A DNA stretch of 48,781 nt, filler included, from Jimgerdemannia flammicorona (taxonomy: Eukaryota), in NCBI GenBank assembly GCA_003990765.1. It is 2 parts of 2 records of this genome, joined end to end, with 100 filler letters (N's around TTAATTAATTAA, not from the genome) between each part and the next. Parts side by side here need not be neighbours in the genome. Positions count along the whole stretch, not along the records: positions 1 to 24,343 come from RBNJ01000986.1; 1 more part is not named here. One strand, 5' to 3'. Below are positions 3,101 to 39,971 of this stretch, one piece after another. Positions within the stretch are counted from its first letter, which is position 1; the number at the start of each line of letters is the position of its first letter. Under the pieces are notes generated by a model. It had not been told where the DNA came from. It saw nothing but the letters and a program-made list of their open reading frames with translations, and did no database searches. The position numbers were made by a program, and so were the translations under genes.

Positions 3101-3671
3101 AAGAAATAAGAAATGACTTATAGAAAAAGAAGTCTTAACTTAGCTATTATATAATTAGTAAACTTATAAAATATCTCTAATATCTTAAGTAAATAAATCT
3201 CAGATTAAAATAGTTTAAGTAAAGAGATAAGAAACTAGTAAGTCTGTAGGTAAATATACTTTAGACTCAACTATCTGAGGACTCTGAGAAGTTAAAGAAG
3301 ATCAAGTATTTAAGATAAAAAAAATCTACTATACATACTTCTACTAATATATATCTACTACATTATAACTTAGTGCTCATTGGCTGGTAATTTAAGATAA
3401 ATATCTTACTTTTAAGCTGAATAACAAACAACTACTATCACTCAAATATATACTCAAATTGAACCAGAAAATTTAGACAAGATAGATATAAGACTACTAG
3501 TATTTCATAGATATATATATCTCTGATGAATCAATCATTATCTTCCTTGATAATTTCAAACAATATACTACTATAAAAACTCTATTAGTATAACAATAAG
3601 TAGCTCTAATGCTATTCAGTCTCTGAGAACTAGCAAGAATTACATTTATAGTAGTAACTCATACTGGAAAT
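3100..3671 (+). mobile_element. 5' (gag-proximal) part of degenerate Ty3/gypsy relic A, left of the insertion
   Basis: Same CpG-free, A-rich composition as 12852 onward. Joining the two flanks gives a seamless ...GGAAATGATAATA with AT (or AATG) duplicated. The start coordinate is approximate. Confidence 0.5.
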
Positions 3672-3713
3672 GTAGCTTTCCTTCCAGGCAGGCTACGCAG
3701 TTATCTGGTTCCA
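3672..3713 (+). repeat. 42-bp terminal direct repeat, left copy
   Basis: GTAGCTTTCCTTCCAGGCAGGCTACGCAGTTATCTGGTTCCA, identical to 12810-12851. Confidence 0.97.
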
Positions 3714-4206
3714 TCTGGTCTCTGTTCCTTTTGGCTGTTACGACCATTTCCACCGATCCTTCTTGTTCGTTCCGGAAGTAGAGGGACTTGTCTCCCCGGA
3801 TCACCATTATTTCTTTTGGCCTTAGGTTGTCCATTACGGCCTTGGCTCCGAAGATGAGCGGTTTCGGAAGGACGTCCGGGATCCTTTCTTCTTCCTGTAG
3901 TATTGGGATTCCTCCGTTTACTACTACCCTGGGTTGTTGAAGGGTTTTTCGAACGGCGCTTGTTGCTTTATGCTCCATTGTGTGACTGCGTGTTGAGAAA
4001 TCGTGGTGGATATTGATGTTACCGAAGCGGGCGGTGAGCATATTTATATTCGTTGTTGTGGACCACGTGTTTGTCTGGTGATCCTTCTTCCACATTGAGT
4101 CTTGTATTTCGTCGATTTCCCTTATCAGGTCCGTTACACTGCCGATCGTTTCCTGGTTTTGGAGTTCTTCGCCGATCTCTGCTTCGATCGCGGTTATTTC
4201 TTTCAT
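3672..4206 (-). CDS. N-terminal part of element ORF2 (164 aa plus MEPDNCVACLEGKL), cut by the linearisation point
   Basis: ORF 3646..4206 ends ...RDQMEPDNCVACLEGKL and then runs into flank sequence. The same peptide starts ORF 11563..12852. Its ATG lies 7 nt after the pol-frame TGA at 4214-4216. Confidence 0.85.
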
Positions 4207-4213
4207 GGCAATT

Positions 4214-6760
4214 TCATTTCTCTTTGGCTCCTTCCTTGGCTGCCCGGAAGAAAGTATTCCACCATATTTCTGTTTCCACTTGGTCTACGGCTCCTTTCCA
4301 TGGATTCTCTGGTTGGTGGTTTTCTTTGTCGCTGTCCGATTCTTCGTTATGGACTTGTCCTTTGAATTGCTTCTGGACGCCTTCTCGTCCGTATTATTCT
4401 TCAGACATGAACGTTATCGATGTGTTTGGTGTCCACGTAGGATCTTCTTCCTGTTGTGGGTACCAGGCGGGTTCGTTCCTTGAGCTACTTGGAATCGTTG
4501 TTTCCCATCTTTGAACGTCTTGCTGCCATTCTTGTAGTGGGTTTTTGTTCCTTGATCCTTCCCATGGTCTGGGTTCTTCATTCCAGCTATTTACCATAGC
4601 TTCCTTCTTTTCTTCCCATTCTTGCCATTCTTTTGGTCCGCGGCCGTCTTTGATCGGTTTCTTTCCGTAGGGTTTTGGCCATTTTGGGAGGGTTTGTTTT
4701 TCGTAACCTCCTCTTCTTGCTATCGCTTCTTGCTGCTTGTGCTCGCTTCCTATCTGGAGGAATTCTTTCGAGGTTCCTTGTTCTTCGCAGAGCTTATTCC
4801 GCATTTTTTCGAATGGGGAATTATCTGATCGCCAGTGCGTTCCGATGTGGTGTCGCTCTTTTTCTCCACCTTTTTGTTTGCTCATTTCTTCGTTCTTCTG
4901 GCGGCGCCATTCTTGATGAGCTTCGAGGGCTTCGAATTCTCGGTTTCTTTCGGCGATTCTTTCCCTGGCCTCTTGCACTTCTTTTGGCGTCGGCGGGTAA
5001 TATGTATCGCTATCTTGGTCCGAGTCGTATTCGTTGGCTGGCCAGAGGAGTTCTTGTTGCTGGTTATCCATGCTGATGATGTTGATACTGACTTCTTGTG
5101 TTAGCTCGTTGTCCTTTATATCTTTTGGAAAGGGATCAGGTCTCCCCCCCAGGGCAACAGCCCCAGCGCGTGATAGGTAGTCTGAGAATCCGTTCTCAGA
5201 TCCCTTAATCCATTTGAACGACACATTAAGTCCTTGTAGGAAGAAGATCATCCTTCTTTCTGCCCCTGTTGGTGGTTCCGTGGAGGCCTTGCTTAGGTAT
5301 GTGTCTGGATTTGTTACCTTTGTAAGCGCTTGGTTGTCAGTGTAGATTATAACCTCCTGATTGGTCATCCAGGGGTTGGTCACCAGTGCATAATATACGG
5401 CGTATAGCTCCGCCTTTTGTTGGTTGAACAGTTCTGGCTGTTCTTTTGCCCTTTTGAACTGAACCAATTTTGGTAGGTTTCGGCTTCCTAGTCCGAGTAG
5501 TCTTGGTGGTGTGGTGGCTTGGTAGATTATCCATCCTACGCCATACGGGGATGCATCCGTATTGACTCGTATTGGTTCTCCTTTTTCCTGTAGCTCCAGT
5601 GTTGCGTGGTTGACGAGGGCTCGTTTGATCTTTTCGAAGGCTACGCATTGTTCATTTTTCCAAAGCTCTTCCAGCTTTCCTTTCTTGTTGACGATGTTAT
5701 TCTTGCATTCCATTAGTGGCGCGATTGTCTTCGTATAGTTCGGGATATAGTGGGCGAAATATCCGAATTTTCCGATGATGGCTTGAAGGTCTTCCACCTT
5801 GGCTGGTTTCGGTAGTCCTAGTAGCGACTGGACCCTTCCTGGGTCAATGTGGATGCCCTGCGTTGTCACCCTGGATCCCAGCAGTGATATTTCCTTCTGT
5901 CTTAGTGCCATTTTCTTTGGTGCGAGCTTGATGCAATGTTTTCGACATATTTTGAGGAATTCTTCCAGTGAGTAGTCGTGTTGTTGAACGGTTTTTCCGC
6001 CTCCTGCGGTGTCGTCAATGTACGATGGTGCTATCAGTTTCTTCAGCACCAACGGCTCGAATGCGTACTTCATGAATCCTTGCCATGCCCGAGGTGCGTT
6101 GTGGATGCCAAACAACATTCTCGAGGGTCTTAAGTATCTTCCGTTAAATGTCCTAACTACAAGAAGGTTCGCATGATGTGGTTCGACTGCGATATGGTGG
6201 AACGCCTTGGTCACATCTGCTTGCCAAATGTACCCTCCTTGTGAAATCTCCAAGAGTGCTTTTTGAACTTCTTGGCTTGTAGGCATTTCAAACGGTATAA
6301 GCTCCGTGCTTTGGTTGTATCCTCGATAGTCGATCACCCATCGGGGCTTGGCTTCTTTTTCCTGAGTTTCCCCTGTGGTTAACTCATCGTGCCCGCTGAA
6401 TACTAGGAACTCCTGTGCGGCCGCGAATGATTGCTGTACTTCTTCGAACCACCCGGCTTTGATCATTTCGTCATGTTCTAGTATTCTTGCTTTATAGTGT
6501 TCTTCGTGTTGCGGATTTCTTTGTGGTAACCTACCCGGGCAGTGGTAGGGTTTTCCGCCGATCTTCAGTCTTGCGATATAGGGGGGCGTTGTCGTGATGG
6601 TTTGGATGTCTTTGATGTCGTTTGCAAATACGTCCTTGTACTGGCATAGTATCTTTTCTAATTGTTTGTCTGGTGGCTTCTTTGCGAACTTGCTTAGGAA
6701 CATTTCGTCGCTCATTTGTTCGCATGATGAGCGACTTACTGAAAACTCGGCTTGAACGTC
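4214..6760 (-). CDS. pol: Reverse transcriptase-RNase H (Ty3/gypsy-caulimovirid type) with a charged C-terminal extension and no integrase
   Basis: RT motifs RWVIDYRGYN, DVTKAFHHI, MLFGIHNAP, YIDD (6011-6022), LLG. RNase H motifs TDAS, ELYAV, TDNQAL, ENGFSDYLSR. A TAA at 4394-4396 is followed by about 59 more sense codons to TGA 4214. No HHCC or DDE motif. Confidence 0.93.
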
Positions 6761-8300
6761 AGGTGCTGGTACAGGCCGGGTTCCCTGCTGGGGATTTGTT
6801 CCCAGTTTCTTCGATATTGTTCCTTGTCTTTCTCCACTGTGGTTTCCTTCGTGGGGTATTCGGTTCGTAGGGTCGCTTCTCGTTCTTGTGCGACTTGGTC
6901 TCCTACTTCTTCCACCTCAAACTTTGACTTGCTTTGTCGGTGCCATGGTTTGGCCTCCGGGGCGCGGAACTTGATTCCTGTTCGCCCTTTTTCTGGGGTT
7001 ATTACTTCCAGGCGGTTTTCGACGAAGTCAATGCTTCCGATGATTACTAGTGCCATTTTGTTGCTTCGGTCAACTTCTCCGTTGTTGAGTCTGAGCTTCC
7101 ATCCTTCAATCCCTTTTAGCGCAATCTTCTTCCAGCTGGCTCCTGTTAGTGCTGTTCCGACGGTTGTTTTGCTAGCAGCTAGGTTTATGGTTATCAGGCA
7201 GTTCTGTCCTGAACCATCTTGCTTGCGCAGTCTTCCGTCCCAGTACAATCCTTCTTTGTCTGGGTTGCCGTGTGCCATAGCCACTTGTCCCCATGGGTTG
7301 TTTCCTCGTAACGCTATGTTTCGTGGTGTGGCTGGTAGTGGAGGTGCAGCACGTTGGTAACTTGCTGGTAATTGTGTCTGTCTTCCTGCAGACGTCTGGG
7401 CCTTCCTGCGGGTTTCTACCGGCTGAAGGTCTTGCTCCTCTTCTAACGGTTGTACTTCGACTGGGATATTCCAGCATCCCTTGTCGTTGTCGTGCTCCCA
7501 ATATTCTCCTATTGGGGTAAGAGAGAGCTGTTCTCCTAGGTTCTGGCATTGGTATCCTGCCTTGGGCCTGGGAGAGGTCCTGTAATCGTGTTCCTTTCCC
7601 TTGTGTTCTTGAATTTTTGCTCTATCTTCTGCGAAGTTTGCCGGGATTTCAACTCCCTTTCGTAGGATTTTTCTTTCGCTGTAGAGGATGTCCCACCCGT
7701 TTTCTTGTAGGAATCTGTTGCCTAGTAGGAACGATGCGCTTCCTGCTCCTTTTAGTACTGTTAAGTTTATCTGGTAGTTCTGTTCCCCTACCTTAAATTT
7801 AACTTGGTGGATTCTTCCTACTACTCCTATCGGGGTTCCTCCAGCTCCTAGGAATCTTCTGTATTCTGGCTTTAGCTGATCCTTGAGTTGTAATCTCTCC
7901 AGGATTTCTTCGCTTATCACATTTTCATCGGCGGCGGTGTCGACTTTGGCTCTGAATACTTCCTGGTTTCGCTTAAGGGTCACCCATATTTGACCTATGG
8001 GGCCTGTTGCTGTGCGTTTTCCCAGTAGGTCGATCTCCGGTGCTTGCTCGATGACTTCAAGGTAGTTGTCTGATTGGTATTCCCAATCTTCGTCGCTTGA
8101 AGGTTCGTTTATCTCGTGGATTTCTTCACCTAGACGTTCTTCTTCTCCTTCGCTGTCGACTTCGATTTCATATGTTCTTTTTCCTACGCGTTTTGTTCTT
8201 CCTGTCCTGAAGAACCTTCGCTTTCTTCCGAAGGAGACCTTTCGTGTACCTTTCTTGTGGAACGGTTTATCTTCCTGAGGGTCGTCCACGTCCATTGGTC
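6736..8300 (-). CDS. Gag C-terminus, retropepsin-like aspartic protease and spacer domain
   Basis: PMDVD motif, an R/K-rich tract, AKVDTAADENVIS (DTA at 7933-7941), flap GAGG and FLLGNRFL, all in ORF 6736..8550. Confidence 0.85.
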
Positions 8301-9286
8301 TTCGTCCTCCTTTATCTCGCCAAATGCTTCCACCGGCATTTCTTGTACTTCTTCTGCTGCTGGTCCGGATTTTTGGTATCTTGTTCTGGCCCAGTAGCTT
8401 CTGTTGTAATTCGTTCGGATGGTACCTTCTTGTACTGCTGCAACGAATTTTCCTTTGAAGATGTTTAAGCAGACATCTAGAACTTGTGCTGCTGTTGTTG
8501 CTGGTGTTGTTGTGAGCATTTGGTTTTGTCGGTAATGATATGGTAACCATTCCGGCATTTTTCCTAAGATAAACTTTTCTTGCGTTGTAAAGGTGTCTTT
8601 TGTTAAGTCCGCGATCCTCATTCGAAGCTCCAGTTGCGTGTTGAAATGCTGCATCTCGTGGATGCTTTGTGCGTTGGACCTTGGGAAGTTATAGAGTTCT
8701 TCCCTTATGATTGTGATTTGTTCTGCTCCGAAGAACTTCTCGTATATTAGGAGTCTTAGTCCTTTTCGTGTTCCTACGGCGTCTGTGTAGGTCATCCAGC
8801 TTAATGGTTTTTCGTGGTCTGCCATATTTTTGCTGAGAACGTCGTTTACGAGCCATGCTCTTGGAACCTGGAACCGACCGCTGCTACTAGTCTGTAGCTG
8901 TATGATTTTGCTGGGTCGTCTTTGTTTTTCGGATCTGCCCAGTATCCGACTAGGTATCCTGCAGCTAGGTATGCGAGGTCCACTTGTCCCACAAATGCTG
9001 GGACTTCCATTGGATTTCCGGTGAACGGTTTTATGTTGTCGAAGATTTTTATGCTTCCCGGAAGCGTCATGTTGACTGGTCCTTCGATGTCTACCGGTGT
9101 GTCGTCTGGTGGTGGTTCATGCGGAGGATGTTGTGGGTTCTTTTTATGATCATCCTCATCCTCGAAGTTCGAGAATATTGCTCCTGCAATCTTCTCCTTT
9201 TGCTGCTGGTTTAGTGCCGCCCATGAGCTTTTGTTGACATTTGGTAGGAATGCTCCTACGAAGTTTATGGAATCTCGGGGCGTCAT
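8184..9286 (-). CDS. gag: Retrotransposon-type capsid (Gag) domain, split by a frame break near 8860
   Basis: IKPFTGNPMEVPAFVGQVD (ORF 8846..9391) continues in the -1 frame as RAWLVN...LIYEKFFG...REELYNF...SIHEMQHFNTQL...KFILGKMP (ORF 8184..8825). This matches the general Ty3-type capsid pattern. Confidence 0.7.
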
Positions 9287-11185
9287 GTTTGTAGTCGTTG
9301 TAGAATTGTTGTGATGGGTTGTACTGTGGTGTTGGTCTCGACTGTCTCCTTCTTCTGATGCCGAAGGCAATGTCGTACATGCTCCATCCATACTGTTGAG
9401 CCCAATCGCTTCCTGGTAGGTCTCCTGTTTCCCAGTCGTTTGGGAAGTTTGGAATTCCTCCTATTCCATGGTCCTTCTGATAACAGGACATTGTGGCGAT
9501 TATGATGTCCAGAATCCTCATGTACATGTCGTCTCTTGGGTAGTTTTTTCCACCATTTGGTGAGTCTACTGAGTCTGAGGCTTGCCATGATAGGGATGCT
9601 TGGAGAAATGTTACTGTTTCTCCTCCGTTGTCGGGGTCATCCCATTGCCATTGGATTCTGGGTTCCTGCCTTCTCGGACTTGGAGATCTTAGTCTTGTGT
9701 TTCGGTTGTTTGGTGGTCTTGGGGGTTCTCCTCCAGCTCCTACTGCCGTTCTTCTTGGTTGTGGTGGTGTTGTTCTGGTCAACCTTGCTAGGATCCTTTC
9801 AGCTTCGCTTGCCGTGTCTCTTGTCCCTTCAACTCTTCTGAGCAGTTCTTCATTTTCTAGTCTCGCTCTTTCTCTGCTTGCTTGGAGTTGTTGCGCGGCG
9901 TTATTATCCAGTCTTTGCCTGACTCTTCCTACTGGAAGTGCGTTTCTTTGTGTTTCTTCCGTTACTGGTGCAAACGGGTTTGGCTGAATCCGCGATGCTC
10001 TGGGTGTTTCTTGCATTATTTCTTCCCATGGATTTGCCTGTCGGTTTGTTACTGTTGCAACATTCGTTCTCAGTGGTTGCCTTCTGGTTTCTTCCAGTGC
10101 TGATCTAATTTGTTGCGCTGTTCTGGCAATTATTCCAGGGTTTGCCGCTTTTCTTTGCCCTAATCTTGCTGTTGCTGCGATTATATCTTCCGCCGTTGTT
10201 ATTCTGTTTCTCCCTATTTCCTGCAGTTCTTCTACTGCTTGGGAGTTTGGTGAGAGCATTCTTGGTATAGCTGTCACCGTGGATGATCCTGATTCTTGTG
10301 GTCTGGGCCCGGCGGGAGGTTGTATTTTGAAGTAGATTTCTGGTACTTCTTCTGCTCCAGTCCATTCGCCGTTTGTTTTCTTTAGCCATGCTGTCAGTCT
10401 GTTTGCTTGTGATATTCTTTCCTTTGGCCAGTCGAATTTTCCGAGTATGTATTCGAAAATTTTTATCTGTAGGGAGGTCGCTGATCCTCCTCCGGCTGCC
10501 GATATTGCGTGTATTATTCTTAACGGTATCTCCTTGAAGTGCCCTCCTAGTTGGTTTGCTACGAAGATGGCGTAGTCATATTTGATGGGCGGCCTTCTTT
10601 TGACTATTGTTTTCACCTTTGCATATCCTTCCGAGAGGAAGTCTGATACTTCTTCGGGGATATCTTCGAACTTGTTGTTTCCTTCTTCGAAGGACTTTCT
10701 CCAGAACGACGTCCATCTTGATGTTCCGACCATGTGTCTGGTCCTAAGCGTGGTCTCGCTTGGGGCATCTACCGTTTCTCCATCTGACTGATGTGTTGGT
10801 ATTGGTTCTCCATGGATCGTGTCTTCTGCTTCTTGTAGTCGGGTTCTTGTAAGCTCCGGCTCTGGTGGTTCCATTGGGCTGACTGGTTCTGAGGTATTAA
10901 ACCAGTCTTCCATCTCCGGTTGCTGGTATGTTGCTACCTCGATCCTTGGCCTTCTTCCCGAGTGGGTGGTCATACTTTCTGACCTCTTTGAACGTTGGGA
11001 GCGTTCTTCTCGGCTGCTTCGGCGGCTTCTGACTTCTTCCTCAAGCTCTTGGATCCGAGCTTGTTGTTGGCGGACTAGGCGTTCCATCCGCTGGTCGGTA
11101 TTTCGTCCGTCCTGCTGACGGGTTCAGGGCTGGCATTGGTTTCGTCATTAACAATGCTTTGGATGATTCTTCCAACTTGCGACAT
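9156..11185 (-). CDS. Large N-terminal ORF of the element, function unknown (coiled coils, R/P/Q-rich)
   Basis: 643-aa ORF 9156..11087. A likely true start ATG at 11185 (AAAAATG, MSQVGRIIQS) is in another frame and overlaps it. Confidence 0.7.
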
Positions 11186-11278
11186 TTTTCTTTTACTTGT
11201 TGAGTAAACCTTTGATCCTCCGGACCGATTCAATTCAGTATCTAGCGGCTAGGCCAGGGGTAAGTCTTATGCTTCCAC

Positions 11279-11567
11279 TGAAAATTGACTCTTGAAGTCT
11301 CGAGGCTAAGCTTTAAGTACACCGGTCAACGTGTGCGCGAAGCAGCTGCGTAGGTAGTGTAGCGTAAAAGCTATTGTGGGGTTTATTGGGTTTGTAAAAG
11401 GGTGTGGAATTCGAGTTCCAATACACCTGTATTTATACATTTGTTTCGACCTCTTGGTCCTGACTATTTGCAAGAGATATTGACAAATTTCGTCGATTCC
11501 TTCTTTGCAGCACATTTTGCCTTGTGACTTTCTTTTCGCCTAGTTATTCGGCGAAATGACCGTCACA
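11279..11567 (-). promoter_or_regulatory. Single LTR-like control region (U3-R-U5-like)
   Basis: On the minus strand, in order: purine tract GGGGAAGTGGGGAA (11585-11572), TGTGAC (11567), TATAAATA (11437-11430), hairpin GGTGT-ATT-GGAA..TTCC-ACACC (11427-11401), AATAAA (11387-11382), ...TTTTCA (11279), then G-TGG (candidate PBS, 11277). It is the only long non-coding stretch of the element. Confidence 0.7.
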
Positions 11568-12851
11568 TTGATTCCCCACTTCCCCAGATACTTGATCCCC
11601 ATTCTGCCGGATCATCTGGGCTTACCAAAATCGCTTGTTGTTCTTCTTCGGATGGTACTCCTCCGGTTCCTTGGATCAGGAGATTCCAGTAGAGCTCTTG
11701 TTCTCCGATTAGTTTTCTTAGGATTGGGATATCGTGAGCTGCTATCCTTGTGATCATGCTTGCCGTTAGTCCTTTGACTTGACTGATGAATTCTTCTCCC
11801 ATTCCTTCCAGGAGTCGGTGGCATGACTTGATTTTGGCCTTGATCCAATCCTTCTGCGTTTTGGTCATCTTTTCTTTCTTGACTTCCTCGATTTGTCTGG
11901 AGACCTTCTTCATGATTTCCTTCATTGCGAACATTCCGGCGCTTTCTTCGTTTTCCCCGTTACTCTGGAAGTCCGTTTTCTTGTTTTGCCAGATCTTTCC
12001 TAGTTCCAAGAAGCATTTGATTGCGCTGACGCTTGTTTCGTCTGCTCTTTTTTCGAAGTTTAGTGCCCTCATTACTAGGTAGGCTTCTTGATCAGCAAAT
12101 TCTCCGTTTGCTAGGTCTTGCGTCGTGATTTCTAACCATCCTGCGGCGTGCCATACTCGGATATTTTTGAAGCAGTTCAGGACTCTTACTGCACTTGTTC
12201 CTAGCTTTGCTTCTGTGGCCAGTAGTTCCTCCATGCTCGGTAGTTCTTCTACCATATTCCCTATGGTTACCGGTGTTTCTTGGATTTCTACCGGCTGCGG
12301 TTGCAGTTGCTCTTCAATTTCCTCGTTTGTCCAGATTCTTACTTCAGGGATTTCTTCCGGTTCTTCCTCGCTGTCGATATCTGCATCGCTAGCGACCGGT
12401 TGTGCTCGTAGGTTTCTTGAGATCCTTCTTGCTCTGGTTCTTCGTGCTCCGACTGCTCGTCGTATTTCCCTTAGCTCGTTGACTTGGTTTTGGAGATTTT
12501 GCGCCAGTTCCGCATCTTCCCTTGCTTCTCTTTCCAAGTCGTTGTAGCTGTTTTGAATCATTACTGCGTTCCATTCCAACGTTTTGATTCTTGCTTCCAT
12601 GTGGGCTAACATCGCTTCCTTGGGTATCTCCATTACCGGTTCGTAGCAGTATAGGCATACTCCTCCGATGGTTTCCTCGATCGGGAGTCGGATGCTATTG
12701 TGTTCTTCTTCCCCGATTTTGCGTTTCTTGTGATTTGCATATATCATACCTAGGCACCTGGTATGGATACTTTTGTCGCAATGTGGGCAGTTGAAGAGTG
12801 AGTCTTCCGGTAGCTTTCCTTCCAGGCAGGCTACGCAGTTATCTGGTTCCA
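11563..12851 (-). CDS. C-terminal 429 aa of element ORF2: PHD-type (C4HC3) zinc finger, coiled coil, acidic linker and helical domain
   Basis: CVAC-x12-CPHC-x4-H-x2-C-x32-CLYC. No ATG remains at this end (TTG at 12852 arises from the flank). The frame is continuous with 4206->3715 on circularisation. Confidence 0.85.
12810..12851 (+). repeat. 42-bp terminal direct repeat, right copy
   Basis: Identical to 3672-3713. Confidence 0.97.
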
Positions 12852-15800
12852 ATGATAATACTATAATACTAGTAGTACAGAAGACCTGATTGCAAACTAT
12901 CTACTATATAGATAAAATCAAGCAGATCCTGAAGGATTAACTCAATAATATCTATCAAGAAATGAATAAAGACCCAAATATCTTTTATATCTGAATCTAC
13001 TATTAGATAATTTTGACTAATTATACTAATGTTATCAAAAATCAAGTAACTAAAACAATCTTTATAAAAGGAATTCATCTAGAGATAGTTATGGTAATTT
13101 AATCAATACTAATAGTTCTAAACTTAATATAGAAGGTAACTTATGCTCAGTGATATTAGATAGTCAGATATCCTCAAGACTATATAATAGAGAGAGTTAC
13201 AAAAGTCAGAATTGAAGTATTTAAAGTAACTAGTATAATTTCTACAACTATAATCAATTAAAATACATCTTAACTAAAGACTACAGAGTAATAGAGAAAT
13301 AGTGATCCTATAGAGAAACTTGTTAAGAAGTTTGCTAAAATAACTACTTATCTGAGAAATATAATAAAGGAAATCAGAAAAAGAGATTGTTGTCCAGTTC
13401 AGAAGTTTGCTACTACTATAGACAAGAAGAGAGAAATCTACTATATATATAGAGAAGAAGGTCACTACTCTTATAAAAATATAAGTGAGACTAAGTGTAA
13501 GGTCCAGCTAAGTAATACTATATATCAGAAATTGTAAATAGATCAATACTATTACTTTTAAAGAGATTGGAGATTCAAAAAAAGAAGAAAAATAGAAAGC
13601 TTATTCAGCCCTCATCTTTAAAAAGAATGTCTACCAGAAACCCTATAAGAGGCCACCAGGAAGATCTAAGAAGAAAGTAGTAGAACAGTCTGTGAAAAAA
13701 TAAATAGAAGTATCTATAAAAATTAAAATCATAGCTGAGAAAATAGATCAAGATATAGAGCTTAAATAAGCAGTTAAAGATCATCTAAGGCAATACTTCT
13801 ATCAGTAAAGAGAAAAAGAAGAAAAAGCTACAAAAGAGTAAAATCTTTAAGTATAATATCTTCAAGGATTTTAGCTAGTAAAAAGTCAATATAATCTTTA
13901 AATAGTTAGTAGAAATTTCTATCTTCAGATAATAAAAGAGACTGAGACTTACAGAAACAGTTAAGAATCAAGAGTAGAAGATAGTTGAGACTAATAATAT
14001 ATAGAATAATTCAGATAAAGAAAGTGAAAAAAATAACTACAAGATCTCTATCTATCTATCTATCAGATTGAAGATAGGATCTTTGAAGCTATCATTGATA
14101 TAAGAGCAGAAGAATGCTTTCTCAGTAAAAAAGCTATAGATTGTCTAGATTGGAAAATTGAAGCTATGAAATTAGTATTCATTACAGTAGATGATACAAG
14201 AGCTACCTCTCTAAGAAAGATTCGGGATATCTCTATTAAGTTTAAAGGAGCAATTATTCTAGTAAATATGATTATTATAAATACTATTAATTATAACATC
14301 CTCATTGATAATCAGTAGCTTCATAATGCTAAGATTATAATTGACATAAACTCCCAGAAGATACAGATTATCTATTAAGGACAAAAGATGTAAATTCTCA
14401 TCAATATCAATAAAGAAGTACTCTCTGAAATAGAGAAAGAAGACAGTAAGCAAGAAGAAGCCTATATGATAACTACTTAAAAGAAAAAGAAGAAGATTGG
14501 ATAGATTAGTAAAAAAGATTGATTACTAAAGAATATACTCTATTAGGAGTATATCTTTATAAAATTCAAATATACTATATGAAGTATATAGATGAGTACT
14601 ATTAATATATTACTAAGATCTATAAGATTCTTTATAAGAAGAAGAAAAGAAGACAGAAGTAGTAAGAAAAGGAAGATCAGAAGAATGAACTACCAGCCCT
14701 CCTAGAGGATAGTGATAATAAAGAATAAATCAAGATCAAGATTTATTTCTATATAGTTCTATTAGAATATAAGTCAGAAAATATAGGAATAGATATTACT
14801 ATTCCCAAGAACTATATTGAAATACTCAAGATAAGAAATAGCCTAGCTAAAAGGAAATTTTTTATTAAAGGAGAAGTTATTAATTCTGATTATATTAGAG
14901 AAATCTTACTTATTACTAGAAACCACAACTCTACAATTCTATTTACAGTTAAGAAGAAAGACTGATTTATATAAATGCTGATTTTTTTAATACTATAACT
15001 CAGGATTTTGGAAGTCAAGAAGCTGGAGGAAATGGAAAGAGAAAGGAGAGGATTTGGATCTACAAAAAGAGAAGTTTTTGACAGTACTAAAATTACTAAA
15101 TTAGATCACAAAAAGGATAAAATCACAGTCAAGTATAGCTATACTATTAGAAATAAATTTCTATTCAAAAAAAAACTCAAGAAGTTACTATATGAATTTG
15201 AGAATATTCTTGCTACTGATTTTAAGAATATCAAAGAAAAGACACCATACTATTATTATGATATAGATATAGAAGATACTGAGCCAATCTATCAAAGAAT
15301 AAGACCAATTCTACTAGTATATTATAAATAGCTCAGAGGAAATCAAGCAGATAGAAGAAGCTAATATCATTAAGGAGACTATTAGTTCTTAGTTATTACT
15401 AATCATACTAGTTTCAAAAAAAGAAAGCAAGCTAGGAGAATTTACTTCAAAGCTCTATACAGACTATAGAAAACTGAATGAAGTTATTAAGAAGAATTAC
15501 TAATTACTATCTCTTATTAGTGATATTCTAGTGATATTAAAAGATAAAGCATAATATTACACCATCTTAGATTTATACTCAGGATTCTATCAAATTAGCC
15601 TTATTAGAGAAGTTAGCAAAAAGCAGCCTTCATTATCTCAGATAGAACTTATGTCTATTTATGAATACTATTTAGAATATATAATTCCCAGTAAGTTTCT
15701 AGAGAATAATAAACAAGATTATCTATAATAAGATAACTAAGAAATATCTAAACTATATTTATTGAATCCTACAGAAACTAAAAGATCATGATCTGTTCAT

Positions 15801-18300
15801 CAAGCCAAAAAAGTATAAGTTCAGCAAAATTGAGATCTTCTACCTTGAGCATATCATTAATTAAAATAGAACTCACACAGACCATATTAAGATTCAAGTA
15901 GTTGAAGTCTCTCTAAGACTTACTATAGTTATTAAAACTCAAGCCTTTATAGGACTTACTACTTATTATATATAGAAGATTTATTAAAGAGTTCTGGTCT
16001 CATTTATGAATTATTCAAGAAAGATACTAAGTTCTAATAGACTGATAGATAATAATAAGTATTTAAATATCTCATGGTTTATTTGACTCAGATACTCATC
16101 TTAAGAAGATCTGACTGGTCTTAAGAATTTATTCTATAGACAGATACAAGCTCAATTAGACTAGAAGTTATTTTTATAAAAAAAAAAAATAAGATCAAAT
16201 ATATGATTATATATCTCAGCTAAAGAACTCATAGAGAAGAAAGAGAATATAAATTCTACAAGCTAAAGTATCTCACAATTATCTAGACTATAAAAAATTT
16301 TCACTACTATCTTACTAGAAGATACTTCACTATTCTAACTAATTACCCAGCTCTTATCTAGTTATTGACCACTAGTCAACTTAAAGAAATATTTATCAAA
16401 TAGATTATAAAACTATAAGCCTATAATGCAACTGTCATATATTACTTAGGAAGAAATAATATTAATATAGATATACTCTCACAGATATTCTAAAATGAAT
16501 AAGAAATTTTACTATAGAATTATTATCTATTTTTTTTTTTTTTCTTTTAAAGTCACTTGGACTTCCATTTATTACTACTCAATCTATAAATAATACAACA
16601 TATATACCCACAATCCCTCAGCCAATGCCCCTCAGATCCCTCTCTCTACTTGTTATTTTTTTCTGCTGAAGGATAATTCAGTCACCTACCACCTGAACTC
16701 TCCTGCCACTCTTCTTACAAATACAATTTACTAGATTCTGATGGCCCCCCCTATCTGGTCCCCACCCTCTCCACTATCCATTCAAAATGTCTAGTATTAA
16801 CCATTCTCAATGTGCTATCTTAGCTTCAATTGCAATCTGCCAGCCCTTTTCAAAGACATAAAGTCAATGACTGACCATCTCTATCCAAATTGCCAGGGTC
16901 TATCCTAAGGTCAATCATTTATCTCCCACTCTACCCACTAATCTTTGCCTGAGGTCTTCCCATCTCCCTCCTTCCCCACCCATAGAATTATCATCTATCT
17001 GAGACAGTAAATGATCTGAAAGAATGAATATAAACAATTATTAATAGAAGCTGAAAATAATTTGAAACTGATAGAGAAATACTAAAGAAAGAAAAACTAC
17101 TAGTTATATCAAAGTATAAGAAGAAATAAGTAATGAAATTAGTATATAAACTTGGCTATCTAAGAGGAATAAATATCTATAATAAAACAAGAAGAATAAT
17201 GTGATGGTCTAAAATAGAAGAAGATATCAAATAATTTATCAAGATCTATAATAAATATTAGAAACAGAAGTAAGATTAGTGAAACCAGATACCAGAATTA
17301 GTAGATATAGAATCAGTACTATTTGATCACATTATAATAGATATAATTAGCCTACTACTCTTAATATTGACTAGTAACTAATATATTATTATCATTATAG
17401 ACCTCTTTATGAAATAAATAGAAGTAAGATCTCTCAAAGAAGTCAATATACAGTTAATTGCTAATTTTGTTTATAGAGAAATCATCTGTCAATTTAAGAC
17501 TCCAAAGTAAGTAACAATAGATAGAAGAATAGAATTTATAAACTAGCTCTTTGAAGTTTTATATGAGAAGTATAAGATTTAGTATATTTAAACTACAGCC
17601 TATTATTTACAGAGAAATGAACAGACTAAAAGAACTAATAAGATACTTAAAAATATTATTACTAAGATCTGTAATAACTATAAAAATTAGGACTATTATC
17701 TATCAATAGTATTATCTACTCTTTAGGATATATAATTATAAAGTATCTATTTTATCTCTTAAAAATTGTTATTTAGAGAAAAAAGTTCTAAAAAAACTCT
17801 ACTATCTAATAGAGATACAATATAGAAATATTTAGATACTGAGATATAGAGATTGTACCAATAAGAAAGAGGGCTAATGATTATATAATCAAGCAATAGA
17901 ATAATATATAGAAAATATATAAGTTTCTAGAGATTATCAAGATAAGAGATAAAGTTTTAATATATTAGAGTATACATAGTAGAAGCTTTATAGTCATAAA
18001 AACTAAAGCTCAATTAAGAAAGATCTCATATTATACAAAATATAAAAGAAACTACTTTTAACTATGAAAACTAATAGGTACAATTATCCTCACTACTATT
18101 TACTAAAACTGACTTAAGAAGTACTATAGCTAATCAATAAAGTACTGCTCTAGCCCTCAAGATTATAAGTATTACTTAGTAAACTATAAAAAGACAATAA
18201 TATTCTACTAAGCTATCAGTTATAGAGGAATTCTTTAAAATATCAAAGTATTATATAGACTCATCTATTATGAACTTTATACTTTAGAGTCTACTAATAT
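12852..18300 (+). mobile_element. Degenerate Ty3/gypsy relic A (gag-PR-dUTPase-RT-RNaseH-integrase)
   Basis: Transition-decayed motifs. PR: AIIDIRAEECFLS (~14090). dUTPase: GEVINSDY..RGFGST (14870-15063). RT: LDLYSGFYQI (~15570). RNase H: TDTSS (~16140). Integrase: IDLFMK*IE, TIDRRIEF, TAYYLQRNEQTKRTN (17400-17650). The end coordinate is approximate. Confidence 0.85.
16531..16981 (-). mobile_element. 5'-truncated LINE 3' end with poly(A) and 17-bp TSD, nested in relic A
   Basis: Poly-T followed by AGTCACTTGGACTTCCATTTATTAC, resembling AGTCGCTTGGACTGCCCTTTATTAC at ~24137. Flanked by ATAGAATTATTATCTAT (16514-16530) and ATAGAATTATCATCTAT (16982-16998). Confidence 0.85.
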
Positions 18301-18835
18301 TATACTAAGTTTTATGAGTACTTTAAGTTGAGAAAATTACTAAATAAAAAAAATATAATCAAAAAAGAATAGATTATAGAGTACTAGATATCCTATATTT
18401 AGATCACTATAGTCAAGCAGATCTATAAACTATTTAAGAATAACTATAACAGTTCTAGTTTCTTTAAGAGAAAGTAGCTAAATCTAAAAGTTCTAGTTGG
18501 CCTAAAGTAGCTTGAAAAGATACTTAAAGGATTTCTGGGAGAAAATATTCTTTGCTTTATTTAGACAAAGAAGAGAAATGCCAAGAAATAGGTTCTCAGC
18601 AAAGCTGACTAATACTATTCTACAATGTTCTGAAAGGTTCCATGATTAGCTAAGATAAGATACTTAGTACTAAAAAAAGACAAAAATATTTTAGTAGTGT
18701 CTGGGTACCAAGAGAAGGTTTTTAAGCAAGTAGAGAGTAGCAGAACATAGTAGAATATTCAAGAAATGATAAGAAAAAACTAACTAAAAGATGCAAAAAT
18801 GTACTAAGACTAAATATGATTGTGAAATTATTACA

Positions 18836-21800
18836 TCTCTCTCTCTTTAAGAACCAATGTCCTTATTGAGTTCTTAGGTAGCATAAGACTAGATATACTT
18901 AACCAAAATTTCTCAAACTTGTATTAGTATATTGGTGGGAATTGGCCATCCTTGTATAGGACAGAGGGCCTATTATCAGACTAATCAACTGGAAGTAGTT
19001 TGAACTCAGCTAGTAGCTTCATTTTAGTAGACTTCTTATTCATTAAATATTCTGCTAGTTCCAGGGTCTCAAAGTAAACTTCCAATATATAAGGCATTGA
19101 TCATTACTATAGATTGTCAATAATCTAAGGAAGTCACTACAGAGATTGGGTAATGTATTTTGCCTTAAAGTCTTAAACTAGATCTTGAGAGTTCTTGAGG
19201 TTGACCAGTGGTTCCCAGGTAGTATTATATTTAGGGTAACCCATCTACTTGACTAGGTATTCAGGACAGTGGTAGCAGATTTATTTGTCAAGAATTTTCT
19301 CAGCTTCATACTCAATATGATCTTCAATAATCACAGAGATAGAGGGCTTAGAAATTTGACTAAGGTAGGGCAGTAACTAGTTCCAGGTCTTGAGATGTGA
19401 TATATAAAAGACCAGGTATACTCTCATGGTTTCAGATAGCTTAAGACAGTAGAAGAATGCAGAGACTTATTCAGTAATATTGAAAGGTCTAATATACTTA
19501 GATTGAAACTTGTTCAAAAGATGGTTGACTTGAGATTGTATCTTGAGGTTCTCAGTAGACAGTAGGACTTGATCTCTAATAATGTAAGTGACATTACAGT
19601 GATTCTTATTAATATACTTAACTTGATGCTATTGAGCCTTCTGAAGATTTATGGTAGCAATCTTGAGTAGTTTGTCTATTTTATCTGTAAAGTTCTTAGT
19701 GGTTGAGACTTATATTTGACTGCTTTTCTTGAAAGAGAATAGACTTATAGGGGTCTTGGAATCTTGACCATAGAGTAATTGGAAAGGGAAAGACCAGTAG
19801 ATAATTAGATAGTATTGTTGTATATAAACTTCACATAAATCAGGTAGTAGTTCCAATTATCTTGCTCATAAGAAATATAGTTTCTAAGCATTTATTCTAG
19901 AGTTCTGTTCATGTGCTCAGTTTGTCCATCAGTTTGTGGGTGAAAGGTGATAGACATAGCCAATTGGGTTCCCAGAGTCTTGAAGAGAGTTTGTCAGAAG
20001 TAACTGGTGAACTTGAGGTCATAATTGCTGACAATTACTCATGATAGGCCATAGTGATAGAAGATGGACTTAAAGAAGATTCTTGCAATCTCAGATGTAG
20101 TAGCATTGGTAGTAGTTGATTCAGTAACCATAGTCTTGGTCAGGTGGTCAATGAATATGATGATAGCATTAGTATCAGATTGAGTTTGTAGTAGTTGAGT
20201 TATAAAGTCTATGGTAACTTGCTCAAATTTTTTAAGAGGAATTGATAGTAGTTATAGTAAACTAGCTAGTGCTTAGATGGTAGACTTGTTATGCTGACAT
20301 AGATCATAGCTGGCAATATAGTTCTTGATTTCCTTGACCATACTTAGCCAATAGTAGTGATATTGAATGTTCTTAATAGTCTTCTTAATTTCCAGATAAC
20401 TGGTAAGAGGGAAGTCATAGTGTTCTTATAAAACCTTGTAGTATAGATTTATATTTTCAGATAGATAAACTTGATCTTGATGATAGATCAGATTGTTCTC
20501 AACAGTATATATCCTTGAGCTTTGTTCAAGAAAACTCTAGTGGTAACTATGTTTTCTTTATAAGCTTGTCTGATTTGGTCTAAGAATTCTGATGCCAAGG
20601 TAACCTGTATGATTGTGGTGAGGTCTAGGCATCTTGATAAGACATTTGGTATAATAAGTATCTTGCTAGGCTTGTAGATGATTGTTGGGTTGAAGGTTTG
20701 AAGCTTGAGACTCTACTTGGCTTATAGATGTGATAGAGTAGGTTGGGTGTTAATATACTTAAGAGATTGATGATCAGTGATAACATCAAACTCAATATCT
20801 TCTAAATAGCATTACTAGTAGTCTAGTGTATGTATTATTTCCAGTAGTTTCTTCTCATAAGTGGCTAGCTTTTATTTAGCTAGGGTCAACTTGTGGGACT
20901 CAAAAGCAATAGGATGATGTTTTTTGCCATCACTTTGTGATAGGACTGCTCCAATGGCAAAATTCAATACATCAGTAGTGACTATAAATTTTAAGCCTTA
21001 ATCTGCATTATACAGAACTAGAGTATAGATCAGACAGTTTTTGAGTTCTTGAAAGGCTTGTTGACAGAAGAGGTCCCAGGTATAGAATACATAGTAGTCT
21101 GAGTGTAGGTTCTTCCTTATGAGGTTAGTCAGTGGCTTAATAATGCCAGAGAAGTTTCTGATAAAGTAGCAGTAGTAGTCAGCTAGACCAAGGAAGGATC
21201 AGAGTTCTGTGAGATTTGACAGAATAAGCTATTCTTTAATTGCTTCTATCTTGTATGAATCTACTTGAATTCCTTGTCCAGAGACAATATAGCCAAGGTA
21301 TTCAACTTGTTTCTTGAAGAATTCACACTTCTTGAGCTTAGTATAAAGCTTGTGTTTTCACAGGATCTCCAGGACTATTCAAATGTATTTGAGATATTCT
21401 TTTTTAGTTGCACTAAAGATCCGGATATCATCAAGATATACCAACAGAAAAATAAATAATTGGTCCTTGAATATCTTATTCATCAGAGTCTGAAATATGG
21501 CAGATGTATTGGTGAGATCAAATACTAAGACCAGGAATTCATAGAGTCCAAAGGGGATTATAAATGCAGTCTTGGGAATGTCTTCTGGCTTGATTCAAAT
21601 TTGGTGATATCCTGACATAAGATCTAACTTAGTGAAGTACTTGGCATTCTTATGAGTATCAAAGATTTGATCAATTAAGAGTAGTGAATAGCAGTTCTTA
21701 ACAATGAGTTTATTGAGTACATAGTAGTATATATATATTTGCAAGATGCTATCCTTCTTCTTGATAAATAAGACTGGTGAGCCATAAGGAGATTTGCTTG

Positions 21801-21990
21801 GCTGAATGGCTCCTCATATAAGTAGTTCTTCTAGTTCTTTCTTGACTACTTCAATTTTAAGTAGTGATATGTAGTACATATGTTTCTTAGGTAGTACAGC
21901 TCCTGGAGTCAGTTTGATTTTATGATCAACTTCTCATATAGGTGGTAGATCAGGTAGCTTGTCTAGAAAGACATCCTTGAATTCTTCTAT
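18836..21990 (-). mobile_element. Degenerate chromovirus (Ty3/gypsy) pol: RT-RNaseH-integrase-chromodomain, 5'-truncated
   Basis: SPYGSPVLFIKKKD (~21780), LVYLDDI (~21430), FHPQTDGQTE (~19930), chromodomain EYEAEKILDK..EYLVK*MGYP..TWEP..NL (19200-19315). PPT-like AAAGAGAGAGAGA followed by TGTAAT at 18835. Confidence 0.9.
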
Positions 21991-22029
21991 AGTGTACAGT
22001 ACCTTAAATCAACCATATGTTATACAAAA

Positions 22030-24070
22030 CTGTAAGTCTGAAATCTGGATCATATGTTTATTCAAATATTGATAATAGCACCAGTAGGTATCCTCCTATG
22101 TGATTTATATTTCTTCACTGCAAACTCTGCTGCTCTTAGCTTGAGGCCACTGTGGTACACACTTATATAATATTGTACTCATCAAGTAAACTGCTGAATT
22201 GTCATTAGATTGATCGATGTAAGTACCTCTAGGATAGTATACTTTAGACCATCTTACATATAGTTATAATTGACTCGACAATAGCACTTAGCTGTACCCT
22301 AGAAGTACTTGATGTAGTTGAGTTCACAATGAAACTTTGGGTGAAAGATGCAGTAGTGGCTAGCAGCCTCAATTATTTCTGCAATCAGTGATTTTTAAGT
22401 AAAGAAGTCTGGTTGAAGTGATAGAATCCTCTCTGTATAACAAGCTATAGTATCTGCCTCATATCCTATATTGTACTAAGTAAGTAGCTTGTTGGATTTC
22501 AGTCAGAGTCCTCACTCAATTAATATCTACTTCATTTCTTTCATCTTACTGTACAGTACCTCATTACAATAGTTATCTGAAAAGACTATTGATTGTTTCA
22601 GCCCATTGAAGAAGCCAGGTCACATAAGTGGCTGCTTGCCACTAGGGCCAAGGTTCATCTTATGTACCAAAAGTGCATCAAAAGTAAAGGCTGAATGATC
22701 AGAACTATTATCAAAGGTGAAAATAGCAACACATCTAGAGTGGATAGTATTGAATATGGGAATGGCTCTTTCCCTAAGCTGTCCATTGTGGTAGGTCATA
22801 TTAGACACTTGAAGTAGTATAAGTATATATATTCCTATTTACTTACCTGCTTCACAAGGTGCTCTCCAGTCCAATATCTATCATTATTCTTTCCATACTC
22901 AAATAATTGACATGCTTTGTGGGGAAAGATAGCTGTTATTTGTGAATATTCTTCTTTGGGGACAGCAAGGCAACCAACTGTATCAAGGAGGAAGTCGCTA
23001 ACCATAAGGCCATAACCACAATCCTTCTTCCTTAGAGGTTATTCACTCTTTGGTCCCCATTCTACATTTATGTCATCATTTGTCTAAAATGTCAATTCAT
23101 CATGCATTACTAATATATACCTCATCTGAGTATCATTAGCAAGATTATCATTAGGCAGAGGCATCAAAGTCTCATCATTGTATTCAACTATTGATAATTC
23201 CAAATCTAATATCTTCTGCAGAAACTGGGTACAATATGCCACAACATCTTCATGCTCATGTCCATCAGTATAAATACCTTTCTTTTATAAGCCATAAGTC
23301 CATCTCATTTTCTTCATCCACTTTGCAACAGTCTCCTCTTGGATTGCTATCAGTTTTATTGCTAGAGCAAGGGAAGAGAATACCTCCTTTTCTAAGTGTT
23401 CTTTGAGCTTTGCAGGAGTCACCATAAACTTATACATTCTGAGGTAAGAGCCAATGGCAAGTTCTATGTCCTTATCTTCCAGAAGACTCTTCACCTTAAC
23501 ATGATGATCTTTCTTGAAATGTGGGATAAAGTGATATATAATCTAAAGGTATATCTATGCTCAGATTACTCTAGCAAAATACAGCCCTCAGTTGTTCACT
23601 TTTGCAATCAGGTTGCTTGATTCTGTGGCCTTCCACCTGTTCTGTTATAGGGTTATGTATGCACTCATCTGCTGAAGATAAAAACAAGTATATTTTGAGA
23701 GATTTTTATTGTTCTTAATAACTCATTCTAATGTAGTGATTTTGGTTTCCCAATTGATCTCTCCCTTGACTTCTATATCTTCTTCTCCACTATTGGTATA
23801 GGTTGGCTGTGAAGGTACTGAAAACCACTTCATAATATATAGTGTTGACATGGTAGCTTTTACAAGATTATGGGCTATATACTTCTTATAGAAATAATTC
23901 CTCTCTGAGTCTCCTTTCATCACAAATATTTGTAATTCTGCTTTGCTCTTCTTCCAGTCACATTTGGCTATAGCATGCATTATTATCTCCTGAGCAGATA
24001 AGACTTTCTCATCACCTTCATTACTACTCTGAGAGTTGTCATGACAATTATCATTAGAGTCGAAAACCAA
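22030..24070 (-). mobile_element. Degenerate IS630/Tc1-like DDE transposase relic of the common fungal type
   Basis: HDELTF*TND (~23090), FDNSSDH..DAL..MNLGPSGKQ (22620-22720), QPDF (~22410), FHPKFHCELN (~22330). Many stops. Confidence 0.75.
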
Positions 24071-24092
24071 AATTTTATCATCTCTAGTATCT

Positions 24093-24137
<45 letters not shown>

Positions 24138-24343
24138 GTCGCTTGGACTGCCCTTTATTACCGATCTATTCTATATAGTTACAATGATCCCACCCCCTAT
24201 CCAATCCCCCTAGGGGGTCCCTCCCCCCCTACCCCTTCCCTGTTAAAGACCACTCTGTCGAACACTATCCCCACCCTCCCACCACTCTGCTCACAGATCT
24301 TCAACACTAAACCTCGACGTCGTCCTCCCTGAGGTCCCCAACC

Positions 24344-24443
24344 NNNNNNNNNNNNNNNNNNNNNNNNNNNNNNNNNNNNNNNNNNNNTTAATTAATTAAN
24401 NNNNNNNNNNNNNNNNNNNNNNNNNNNNNNNNNNNNNNNNNNN
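24344..24443. other. Artificial 100-nt gap spacer (N44-TTAATTAATTAA-N44)
   Basis: A six-frame stop linker centred in Ns. Confidence 0.95.
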
Positions 24444-28070: not shown

Positions 28071-28143
28071 ATTGAAGAAATATTTCAACAAAGACCCCAA
28101 TCTATAATTCCATACTCATCTCATCTCCCACCAGATCCAAGCA

Positions 28144-29994: not shown

Positions 29995-30029
29995 ACCAGT
30001 TCAATCATTGCCATCTATGTTGCTAGTCG

Positions 30030-35244: not shown

Positions 35245-35246
35245 AA

Positions 35247-39900: not shown

Positions 39901-39971
39901 TTGATTGGGTCAAAGTATGCTATGGGGAGATTTGGATATAAAAATAAAGAAATAACCGTTGTCACATTAAT

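Follow-up and report, generated by a model that had tools for sequence, protein, structure and literature searches.

We analysed a 48,781-nucleotide (nt) stretch of Jimgerdemannia flammicorona DNA (the window; GenBank assembly GCA_003990765.1) that carries a retroelement copy on its minus strand, and describe ORF2, the open reading frame (ORF) that follows the polymerase gene (pol) of this element. ORF2 encodes an eight-ligand Cys/His finger, a probable coiled coil with an Arg-rich end and a predicted helical domain, and we take it to be a genuine accessory gene, under selection, in an integrase-less element. The gene order on the minus strand is a region resembling a long terminal repeat (LTR), a leader ORF, ORF-A, ORF-B, ORF-C, a protease ORF, reverse transcriptase (RT)-RNase H and ORF2 (Table 1). 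The element has a GC content of ~47% and an A-rich coding strand and is embedded in AT-rich, CpG-depleted old repeats; abrupt shifts in GC and A/T skew mark its limits at ~3672 and 12851. A perfect 42-nt direct repeat is found at the copy ends (3672-3713 equals 12810-12851, spacing 9,138) and constitutes the element's sole self-similarity within the window.

Table 1. Features of the retroelement copy, in positions of the window
Feature	Position	Strand	Basis
Retroelement copy, 9,180 nt (9,138-nt unit + 42 nt)	3672..12851	-	composition, direct repeat
Terminal direct repeat, 5' copy	12810..12851	-	100% identity, 42 nt
Terminal direct repeat, 3' copy	3672..3713	-	100% identity, 42 nt
ORF2, N-terminal part, 164 codons, ATG 4206	3714..4206	-	open frame; P0003 alignment
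ORF2, C-terminal part	11563..12851	-	interval of the initial annotation; open frame, homologues
Eight-ligand Cys/His finger, two Zn expected	12646..12837	-	pattern; ligands invariant in P0029 alignments
Long heptad helix, residues 78-149, probable coiled coil, Arg-rich end	12406..12621	-	AlphaFold2, sequence
Acidic linker DADIDSEEEPEEIPE, differs between copies	12343..12387	-	sequence, P0003 alignment
Orphan alpha-helical C-terminal domain	11653..12240	-	common to P0028 (37% identity) and P0029
LTR-like region, only sizeable non-coding stretch	11186..11562	-	sequence motifs; roles inferred
Motifs of the LTR-like region	purine run 11540-11515; TG 11514; TATA TATAAATA 11437-11430; AATAAA 11387-11382; CA 11280-11279; TGG 11277	-	sequence
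Leader ORF, 36 codons, stop 9 nt after ORF-A ATG (11087)	11076..11185	-	ORF reading
ORF-A/B/C, overlapping, no known family, gag-like by position only	8184..11123	-	ORF reading
ORF-A; ORF-B; ORF-C	11087-9156; 9391-8846; 8825-8184	-	ORF coordinates
Retropepsin-type protease ORF, TAA 20 nt before RT ATG	6736..8688	-	Pfam gag-asp_proteas E 1e-9
RT-RNase H ORF, 773 aa from ATG 6715, Trp-rich tail	4394..6715	-	Pfam

ORF2 is split by the copy ends and encodes a C4HC3 finger

The ends of the 9,180-nt copy split ORF2, and the frame rejoins on a 9,138-nt circle directly after pol. Across this circle junction, 4206-3714 joined to 12851-11566 gives 1,779 nt, or 593 codons with zero stops. The C-terminal part contributes 429 codons plus the TGA (minus strand, 12852->11563), and the frame in the window copy continues past the 3' repeat into flanking DNA. 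The joined 593-aa protein proposed in the initial annotation is open throughout, and the direct repeat, the open frame and the gene model P0003 (see below) bear out its view that the copy is circularly permuted and that ORF2 comes immediately after pol. The slot that it gave to ORF2, between pol and the polypurine tract, stands on the pol side, both on the circle and in P0003. The tract itself is unconfirmed: purine runs are present, but on a coding strand with 61% purine along its whole length. The purine-rich run before the 3' repeat (16/19) ranks in the top 3.2% of 19-mers of the element and is therefore suggestive only.

With the first codon of the 429-aa part taken as residue 1, minus-strand 12837-12646 encodes C6-x2-C9-x12-C22-x2-C25-x4-H30-x2-C33-x32-C66-x2-C69. 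Expressed as a regular expression (C..C-x8-25-C-x2-4-C-x4-5-H..C-x10-50-C..C), the finger has a single match in the six-frame translation of the window, exactly where it had first been placed, and neither shuffling the residues of the 429-aa ORF (20,000 trials) nor block-shuffling the window (100 trials) produced the pattern. Eight of the ten Cys of this ORF belong to the finger, and a KKRK motif (12729-12718) sits in its 32-residue loop. The terminal repeat encodes MEPDNCVACLEGKL (M-E-P-D-N-C-V-A-C-L-E-G-K-L of ORF2), and thus contains the first CxxC of the finger.

The coiled coil, basic patch and helical domain that had been read downstream were found in that order. AlphaFold2 predicts one long helix at residues 78-149 (predicted local distance difference test, pLDDT, up to 83 by block), in which ~8 heptads with hydrophobic a/d positions can be read from the sequence; RRTRARRISR (residues 137-146, 12444-12415) lies at its end. 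The ~200 C-terminal residues are predicted to be helical with low confidence, and for this domain the PDB profile search gave nothing below E 0.1 and Pfam only chance-level rows. The N-terminal part has no family match in Pfam. A complex prediction with two copies of residues 1-160 and four Zn scored 0.02 (mark 0.32), which weighs neither for nor against oligomerisation. The possibility that ORF2 is a divergent integrase or tyrosine recombinase was rejected, as the prediction after the finger is all-helical and no catalytic motif is common to the window copy and its homologue P0029.

ORF2 is conserved in a second copy and in a distant homologue

A HMMER search of 1,835,955,588 representative proteins (E<=0.001) returned only two homologues of ORF2, P0028 and P0029. 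The former is a gene model that fuses the helical domain to an unrelated N-terminus and matches ORF2 in that domain only, at 37% identity. P0029 (417 aa) matches ORF2 from the finger through the C-terminus (BLASTP 2e-15, 22% identity). All eight Cys/His are kept in it, with identical spacing up to ligand 6, and the loop before the last CxxC has 11 residues in P0029 versus 32 in the window copy. The finger is therefore kept in 2 of the 2 sequences that span it.

A further gene model, P0003 (1,181 aa, named Jimgerdemannia flammicorona by its source), represents a second pol-ORF2 copy. It aligns in order with pol (81% identity), 4209-3703 (73%) and 12744-12142 (68%), retains the last CxxC, the only portion of the finger it includes, and is identical in the basic stretch with RRTRARRISR. 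Contigs of run X2 also contain ORF2. Among the 13 substitutions listed for its C-terminal part, eight are synonymous and five are not, with none at a second codon position; in the protease ORF, 17 of those listed are synonymous and six are not. These counts cover the listed differences, with 31 further differences outside them, and are indicative only; they suggest constraint on ORF2.

A word-indexed search for ORF2 relatives of near length yielded 0 of 6,338 candidates, and an ORF2 profile (A3) found P0029 alone among 8,000 candidates. Back-translated scans with the ORF2 (A3) and pol (A4) profiles gave pattern matches in metagenome contigs (332 and 477), viral contigs (121 and 76) and genome contigs (63), with no locus confirmed among them. 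Two findings had been named that would have spoken against ORF2 as an element gene: Cys/His residues not conserved in homologues, and a host gene captured in this copy only. Since the residues are kept in P0029, the sole distant homologue spanning the finger, and ORF2 recurs in P0003 and the X2 contigs, we regard it as a conserved gene of the element.

Pol is of Ty3/gypsy-caulimovirus type and no integrase is detected

Pfam identifies RVT_1 (7.2e-13) and RT_RNaseH_2 (1.9e-9) in pol; with the protease, these matches agree with the original assignment to retroelements. The closest solved RT structures are those of Ty3 (4OL8, E 4.6e-18), foamy-virus protease-RT (1e-14) and cauliflower mosaic virus (CaMV; 8R0S, 1.1e-14), the last being given as the CaMV RT structure in PMC11363490. 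Judged by these matches, the element is of Ty3/gypsy-caulimovirus grade. In a large protein collection, close pol relatives comprise three J. flammicorona proteins only (72-90% identity). None of the other 22 matches exceeds 28% identity, and the rve integrase domain is present in 13 of them. The nearest named relatives of the element lie in J. flammicorona (Endogonales fungi).

No integrase, tyrosine recombinase or endonuclease was matched at E<=5 by Pfam in seven stop-to-stop minus-strand ORFs, and none in four further overlapping ORFs (three plus-strand, one minus-strand). The element had been called integrase-less, and this holds for every ORF scanned; a very divergent tyrosine recombinase is possible. 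P0003 likewise passes from RNase H straight to ORF2. A tRNA-Met primer site was not found in the element with two Met-tRNA primer-binding-site motifs (1-2 mismatches), and the window contains no tRNA gene.

The TAA at 4396-4394 that ends pol in the window reads as a sense codon in P0003 and as TCA in an X2 contig, so this stop may be private to the window copy. In the P0003 and X2 copies the pol frame extends to a TGA at 4216, 7 nt before the ORF2 ATG, so that ORF2 occupies the integrase position of a Ty3/gypsy pol. With so short a gap after pol, ORF2 could be translated by re-initiation or as an extension of pol.

Beyond RNase H, the tail of pol (4217-5200, minus strand) contains 15 Trp in 328 aa (4.6%) versus 1.6% in the RT core. 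Thirteen of the 15 are kept in P0003, the remaining residues being 68% identical, and Pfam gives no family match for this tail. Our guess is that it could be a W-motif platform of the Argonaute-hook kind.

The window copy inserted without integrase hallmarks

The window copy terminates inside ORF2, not at LTRs, and neither a target-site duplication nor microhomology is present at either of its junctions. Insertion of this copy, the one genomic copy read and the basis of all that is said here on insertion, took place without integrase hallmarks. An X2 contig spans the 3' junction (3574-3783), and the insertion is therefore common to a second data set of the same organism. None of the X1/X2 contigs listed, at thin coverage, joins 12851 to 3714, and the window holds no uninterrupted paralogous target (empty site).

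The 42-nt redundancy could have arisen from a filled-in staggered break of a one-LTR circle, from a strand-displacement flap at the plus-strand priming site, or as a miniature LTR; a concatemer with ends set by chance is an unlikely source for a 1.005-unit piece. The copy looks young because its repeats are identical and its CpG observed/expected ratio is normal (0.84) amid repeats in which CpG has been erased (0.01-0.07). These low values hold for 12852-24343 and 31001-40000, and the ratio is 1.12 in the gene-bearing 40001-48781. The CpG loss looks like methylation-driven or repeat-induced-point-mutation-like C-to-T decay of old repeats.

The element inserted beside or into a decayed Ty3/gypsy relic at 15906-18317 on the plus strand (RT_RNaseH 2.5e-15, rve 0.0027), whose frames are open only with TAA/TAG read as Gln. 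We considered a ciliate code for the host and found it unnecessary: C-to-T decay of CAA/CAG accounts for the relic, and the element and a kinase gene of the window use the standard code. The element's contig ends at 24343 (1-24343) and is followed by N runs of 44 at 24344-24387 and 24400-24443, so that the window consists of several contigs joined together. The region 24444-31000 has a GC fraction of 0.49-0.57 and a strongly negative GC skew (-0.38 to -0.55). Its long ORFs, present on both strands, have no Pfam match. A U6 snRNA gene (39981-40088, minus strand, 75.9 bits) and the protein-kinase ORF (41362-42156, plus strand, PK_Tyr_Ser-Thr 7e-25) are ordinary nuclear genes on the later contig.

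X1/X2 contigs also contain plus-strand GT..AG joints (12076>12174, 12238>12334 and 12797>12912; 95-114 nt skipped) that run antisense to ORF2 and into the flank. They may represent a spliced antisense transcript, the RNA nature of X1/X2 being a guess.

Control region and expression of packed ORFs

The LTR-like region occurs once per unit and is internal in the window copy; on the circle, ORF2 is the last gene before this single control region. Transcription from its TATA box in the integrated copy would yield neither a complete ORF2 nor a full genome, and a circular or tandem template would therefore be needed.

ORF-A and ORF-C share one frame with four stops between them, bridged by ORF-B in another frame, a layout to be explained by independent initiation or else by a pair of compensating frameshifts in the window copy. 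ORF-A has no match in PDB or Pfam. The protease occupies residues 234-328 of its stop-to-stop frame and is followed by ~320 residues without assignment. Start codons follow stops closely, with TAA-20 nt-ATG at the ORF-B/ORF-C and protease/RT junctions and TGA-7 nt-ATG between the pol extension and ORF2. No in-frame slippery heptamer occurs in the two overlaps that would call for a -1 shift, ORF-C/protease and protease/RT, so that a non-frameshift route to the downstream ORFs is needed. CCCAAAC at 9444, in the ORF-A/ORF-B overlap, was rejected as a frameshift site, as a -1 slip there enters the wrong frame for ORF-B.

Comparison with known reverse-transcribing elements

Reverse-transcribing elements without integrase are known: Caulimoviridae in plants, hepadnaviruses in animals, and tyrosine-recombinase elements. 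Like Caulimoviridae, the element encodes protease, RT and RNase H without integrase, has packed ORFs, a unit of ~9.1 kb that behaves as a circle and one control region with a TATA box and a poly(A) signal, and places ORF2 in the slot of P6; its RT also matches that of CaMV, as noted above. Unlike them, its ORFs give no Cauli_VI, movement-protein or CCHC coat-protein signal (Pfam, E<=5), the tRNA-Met primer site is not found with the two motifs used, its nearest named relatives are fungal and its RT matches that of Ty3 no less closely. Their episome is an open circle, whereas the element is known here from an integrated, permuted copy only.

With LTR retrotransposons of the Metaviridae the element shares a Ty3-type RT and RT_RNaseH_2, but the window copy has no two flanking LTRs, no target-site duplication and no rve integrase. 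Chromodomains are described as accessory domains of LTR-element polyproteins (PMC6338049). Chromovirus integrases with chromodomains resemble the present case in that a putative chromatin reader follows RNase H in a pol region of Ty3/gypsy grade; here, in contrast, the integrase core is missing and the putative reader is a zinc finger. Tyrosine-recombinase retroelements of the DIRS/Ngaro type are reported from fungi (PMC3783388, PMC7192593). They too lack a DDE integrase and target-site duplications, and their termini follow a circular logic, but the element has a protease, no detected tyrosine recombinase and an RT-RNase H of Ty3/caulimovirus type with RT_RNaseH_2.

A PHD-type finger on a retroelement has a precedent in the ORF1 of CR1/L2 long interspersed nuclear elements (LINEs), for which the cited report proposes chromatin targeting without functional tests (PMC4120745). 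These belong to the non-LTR class, with RRM, CCHC and esterase domains as context in that account, and their fingers reach high HHpred probabilities, whereas the ORF2 finger stays below every threshold. Among titles and abstracts, with subscription journals and Repbase outside the search, we found no fungal protease-RT-RNase H element in which a zinc-finger/coiled-coil ORF replaces integrase.

Finger type and possible function of ORF2

PHD, RING and RING-v fingers are distinguished by textbook rules of ligand order and spacing. In a canonical RING the His is ligand 4, and RING-v has C-x1-C and x7 before the His. C1 domains have a His ligand first (H-x12-C) and a single Cys last, after ~7 residues, and PHD fingers usually carry an aromatic residue (Trp) two positions before ligand 7. 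In both the window copy and P0029 the order is C4-H-C3 with C-x2-C...C-x2-C-x4-H-x2-C...C-x2-C spacing, which fits the PHD type and neither RING nor RING-v. Among Pfam families, PHD (PF00628) ranks first for the window finger (E 8.9e-4 with an 87-aa piece). A PDB profile search, with a profile built from two sequences, E<=10 and types taken from depositors' molecule names, gave 40 matches: 29 PHD, four RING (RNF24, EL5, ZNRF1 and Slx1), three C1 and four zinc ribbons. BRD1 (BRPF2) PHD1 (0.037) and KMT2D PHD6 (0.06) were within the first four, and the local similarity to PHD fingers lies around 'C.xC....H..C.G'. C1 domains (PF00130/PF03107) share with ORF2 the core C-x2-C-x12-13-C-x2-C-x4-H-x2-C and have sub-threshold Pfam matches in the window finger (C1_2, 18.1 bits versus a cutoff of 26) and in P0029. 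Unlike C1 domains under the rule given above, ORF2 ends in CxxC and its alignment with P0029 contains no conserved upstream His.

We favour, with a probability of roughly 0.35, the view that ORF2 serves as an oligomeric adaptor in the nucleus and anchors the element's nucleic acid to chromatin. Its coiled coil would assemble the protein into dimers or larger oligomers, the element's own nucleic acid would be bound by the Arg-rich motif together with the orphan helical domain, KKRK and the Arg-rich motif would mediate nuclear import, and the two-zinc C4HC3 finger would attach this complex to a protein of chromatin, with a histone tail as the likeliest target. Docking would keep reverse-transcribed DNA on host chromosomes or deliver it to them, with the element DNA persisting as a circle or being captured at breaks by host repair; elsewhere, this task falls to integrase and its chromodomain-type targeting modules. 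We infer these biochemical activities, as well as the episomal life style, tethering and counter-silencing put forward in the initial annotation; what is seen directly is the gene, its architecture, position and conservation and the lack of a detectable integrase. It is unlikely, in our judgement, that the whole of a broader scheme applies, in which the element is an integrase-free, pararetrovirus-like or circle-based fungal replicon, ORF2 is a PHD-like tether that replaces integration, and integrated copies are permuted circles with short terminal redundancy.

Several observations weigh against docking through a PHD-type finger. PF00628 scores 19.7 bits with the 87-aa piece and 17.3 with the whole ORF, below the cutoff of 24; P0029 has no PHD row at E<=5 and gives Prok-RING_1 (E 0.0019, 18.6 bits versus 29.1) and C1_1 (E 0.0022, 18.2 versus 26.5) instead, both sub-threshold. 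The top PDB profile match is the C1 domain of ARHGEF2 (E 0.0017), and every alignment in that list ends after ligand 6. The residues before ligand 7 read G-G-V-C-L-Y-C in the window copy and G-G-L-C-L-Y-C in P0029, so that the PHD aromatic is absent, and the 32-residue KKRK loop before the last CxxC also sets ORF2 apart from PHD fingers. AlphaFold2 yields low-confidence models (mean pLDDT of 46 with the whole ORF and 51.8 with the finger), and Foldseek gave 0 matches at E<=0.001; its 205 matches at E<=10 mix RING, PHD and C2H2, with RING and U-box chains at E 2-3. The whole finger is spanned by two sequences only, as the P0003 gene model skips a 44-residue stretch with ligands 1 to 6, a gap that may be a predicted intron or damage. 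The C-terminal domain matches no DNA- or RNA-binding family in Pfam or the PDB profile search, and no episome or circle-junction molecule was observed. The assignment to PHD type was thus supported by ligand order, spacing and 29 of 40 weak PDB matches, but not by the Pfam cutoff, the missing Trp or the C1 domain as best match. Given such weak models and a Foldseek search that does not discriminate, we name the finger C4HC3 with PHD-type spacing rather than a PF00628 member, and place it probably in the PHD/C1/RING treble-clef group.

The main rival to chromatin docking is that ORF2 acts as an expression transactivator, an analogue of the caulimovirus transactivator/viroplasmin (P6/TAV) or of Tax/Tas of complex retroviruses, driving the LTR-like region or re-initiation on the packed ORFs, with the Arg-rich motif binding RNA and the coiled coil self-associating. 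We hold this to be possible, at odds of one to several. ORF2 lies in the regulators' slot, as the last ORF before the control region, and combines an Arg-rich motif, an acidic stretch and a coiled coil, as is typical of such regulators; the short stop-to-ATG spacers (two of 20 nt, one of 7 nt), the overlap of the leader ORF with ORF-A and the lack of slippery heptamers in the two overlaps also suit a re-initiation factor. However, ORF2 shows no likeness to Cauli_VI or any other transactivator family, the ORF overlaps could equally be frameshift mutations given the four in-frame stops between ORF-A and ORF-C, and we know of no TAV with a PHD-type-spaced zinc finger. A different objection, also a tentative possibility, concerns the element: it may be an ordinary LTR lineage that has lost its integrase and depends on mobilisation in trans, with a window copy that is rearranged or derived from a one-LTR circle and with ORF2 as an additional ORF unrelated to the missing integrase. 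Textbook LTR grammar does occur once on the circle (purine run, TG...CA, TATA, AATAAA, TGG), the RT is nearest to Ty3, rve is carried by most of the distant RT relatives, and additional ORFs are frequent among LTR elements according to PMC7264820 and PMC5408684. Against this, both copies, with pol proteins ~19% apart, go from RNase H to ORF2 without integrase, which suggests that the integrase-less form has itself been propagating; the window frames are open save for one TAA at the pol end, and P0003 is known from a gene model alone, one that omits 44 ORF2 residues. No two-LTR copy was seen, with one genomic copy read.

Two other explanations have less in their favour. The finger could be that of a RING-like E3 ubiquitin ligase which, together with the coiled coil, removes a host restriction or silencing factor. 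This is improbable in our view: the sub-threshold zf-RING_2 (14.1 bits versus 27.3, E 0.06) and Prok-RING_1 rows, the 4 of 40 weak PDB matches that are RING and the RING/U-box chains in Foldseek point this way, but the C4-H-C3 order, in which x2 separates ligands 3 and 4 and x4 separates ligands 4 and 5, is contrary to the RING and RING-v rules, PHD outnumbers RING by 29 to 4 in the profile search, and all family scores are below cutoff. That ORF2 is a captured fragment of a host gene or a functionless chance frame is disfavoured and very hard to reconcile with the data, even though only two homologues were found in so large a collection and P0028 joins the helical domain to an unrelated N-terminus. 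ORF2 stands behind pol in two diverged copies, its architecture and eight ligands are retained at 22% identity, the listed X2 differences are mostly synonymous and a 593-codon frame is open.

Significance

The element offers a handle on genome defence, as an intact, CpG-normal copy amid repeats that have been nearly erased of CpG. Should ORF2 be merely another additional ORF, the case would still provide a clean new family and an unusual permuted insertion. If chromatin docking by ORF2 is true, a retroelement-borne reader module from a new protein family would be at hand, and docking of element DNA on chromatin would represent a third way in which retroelement DNA persists in the nucleus, beside integration and free episomes.

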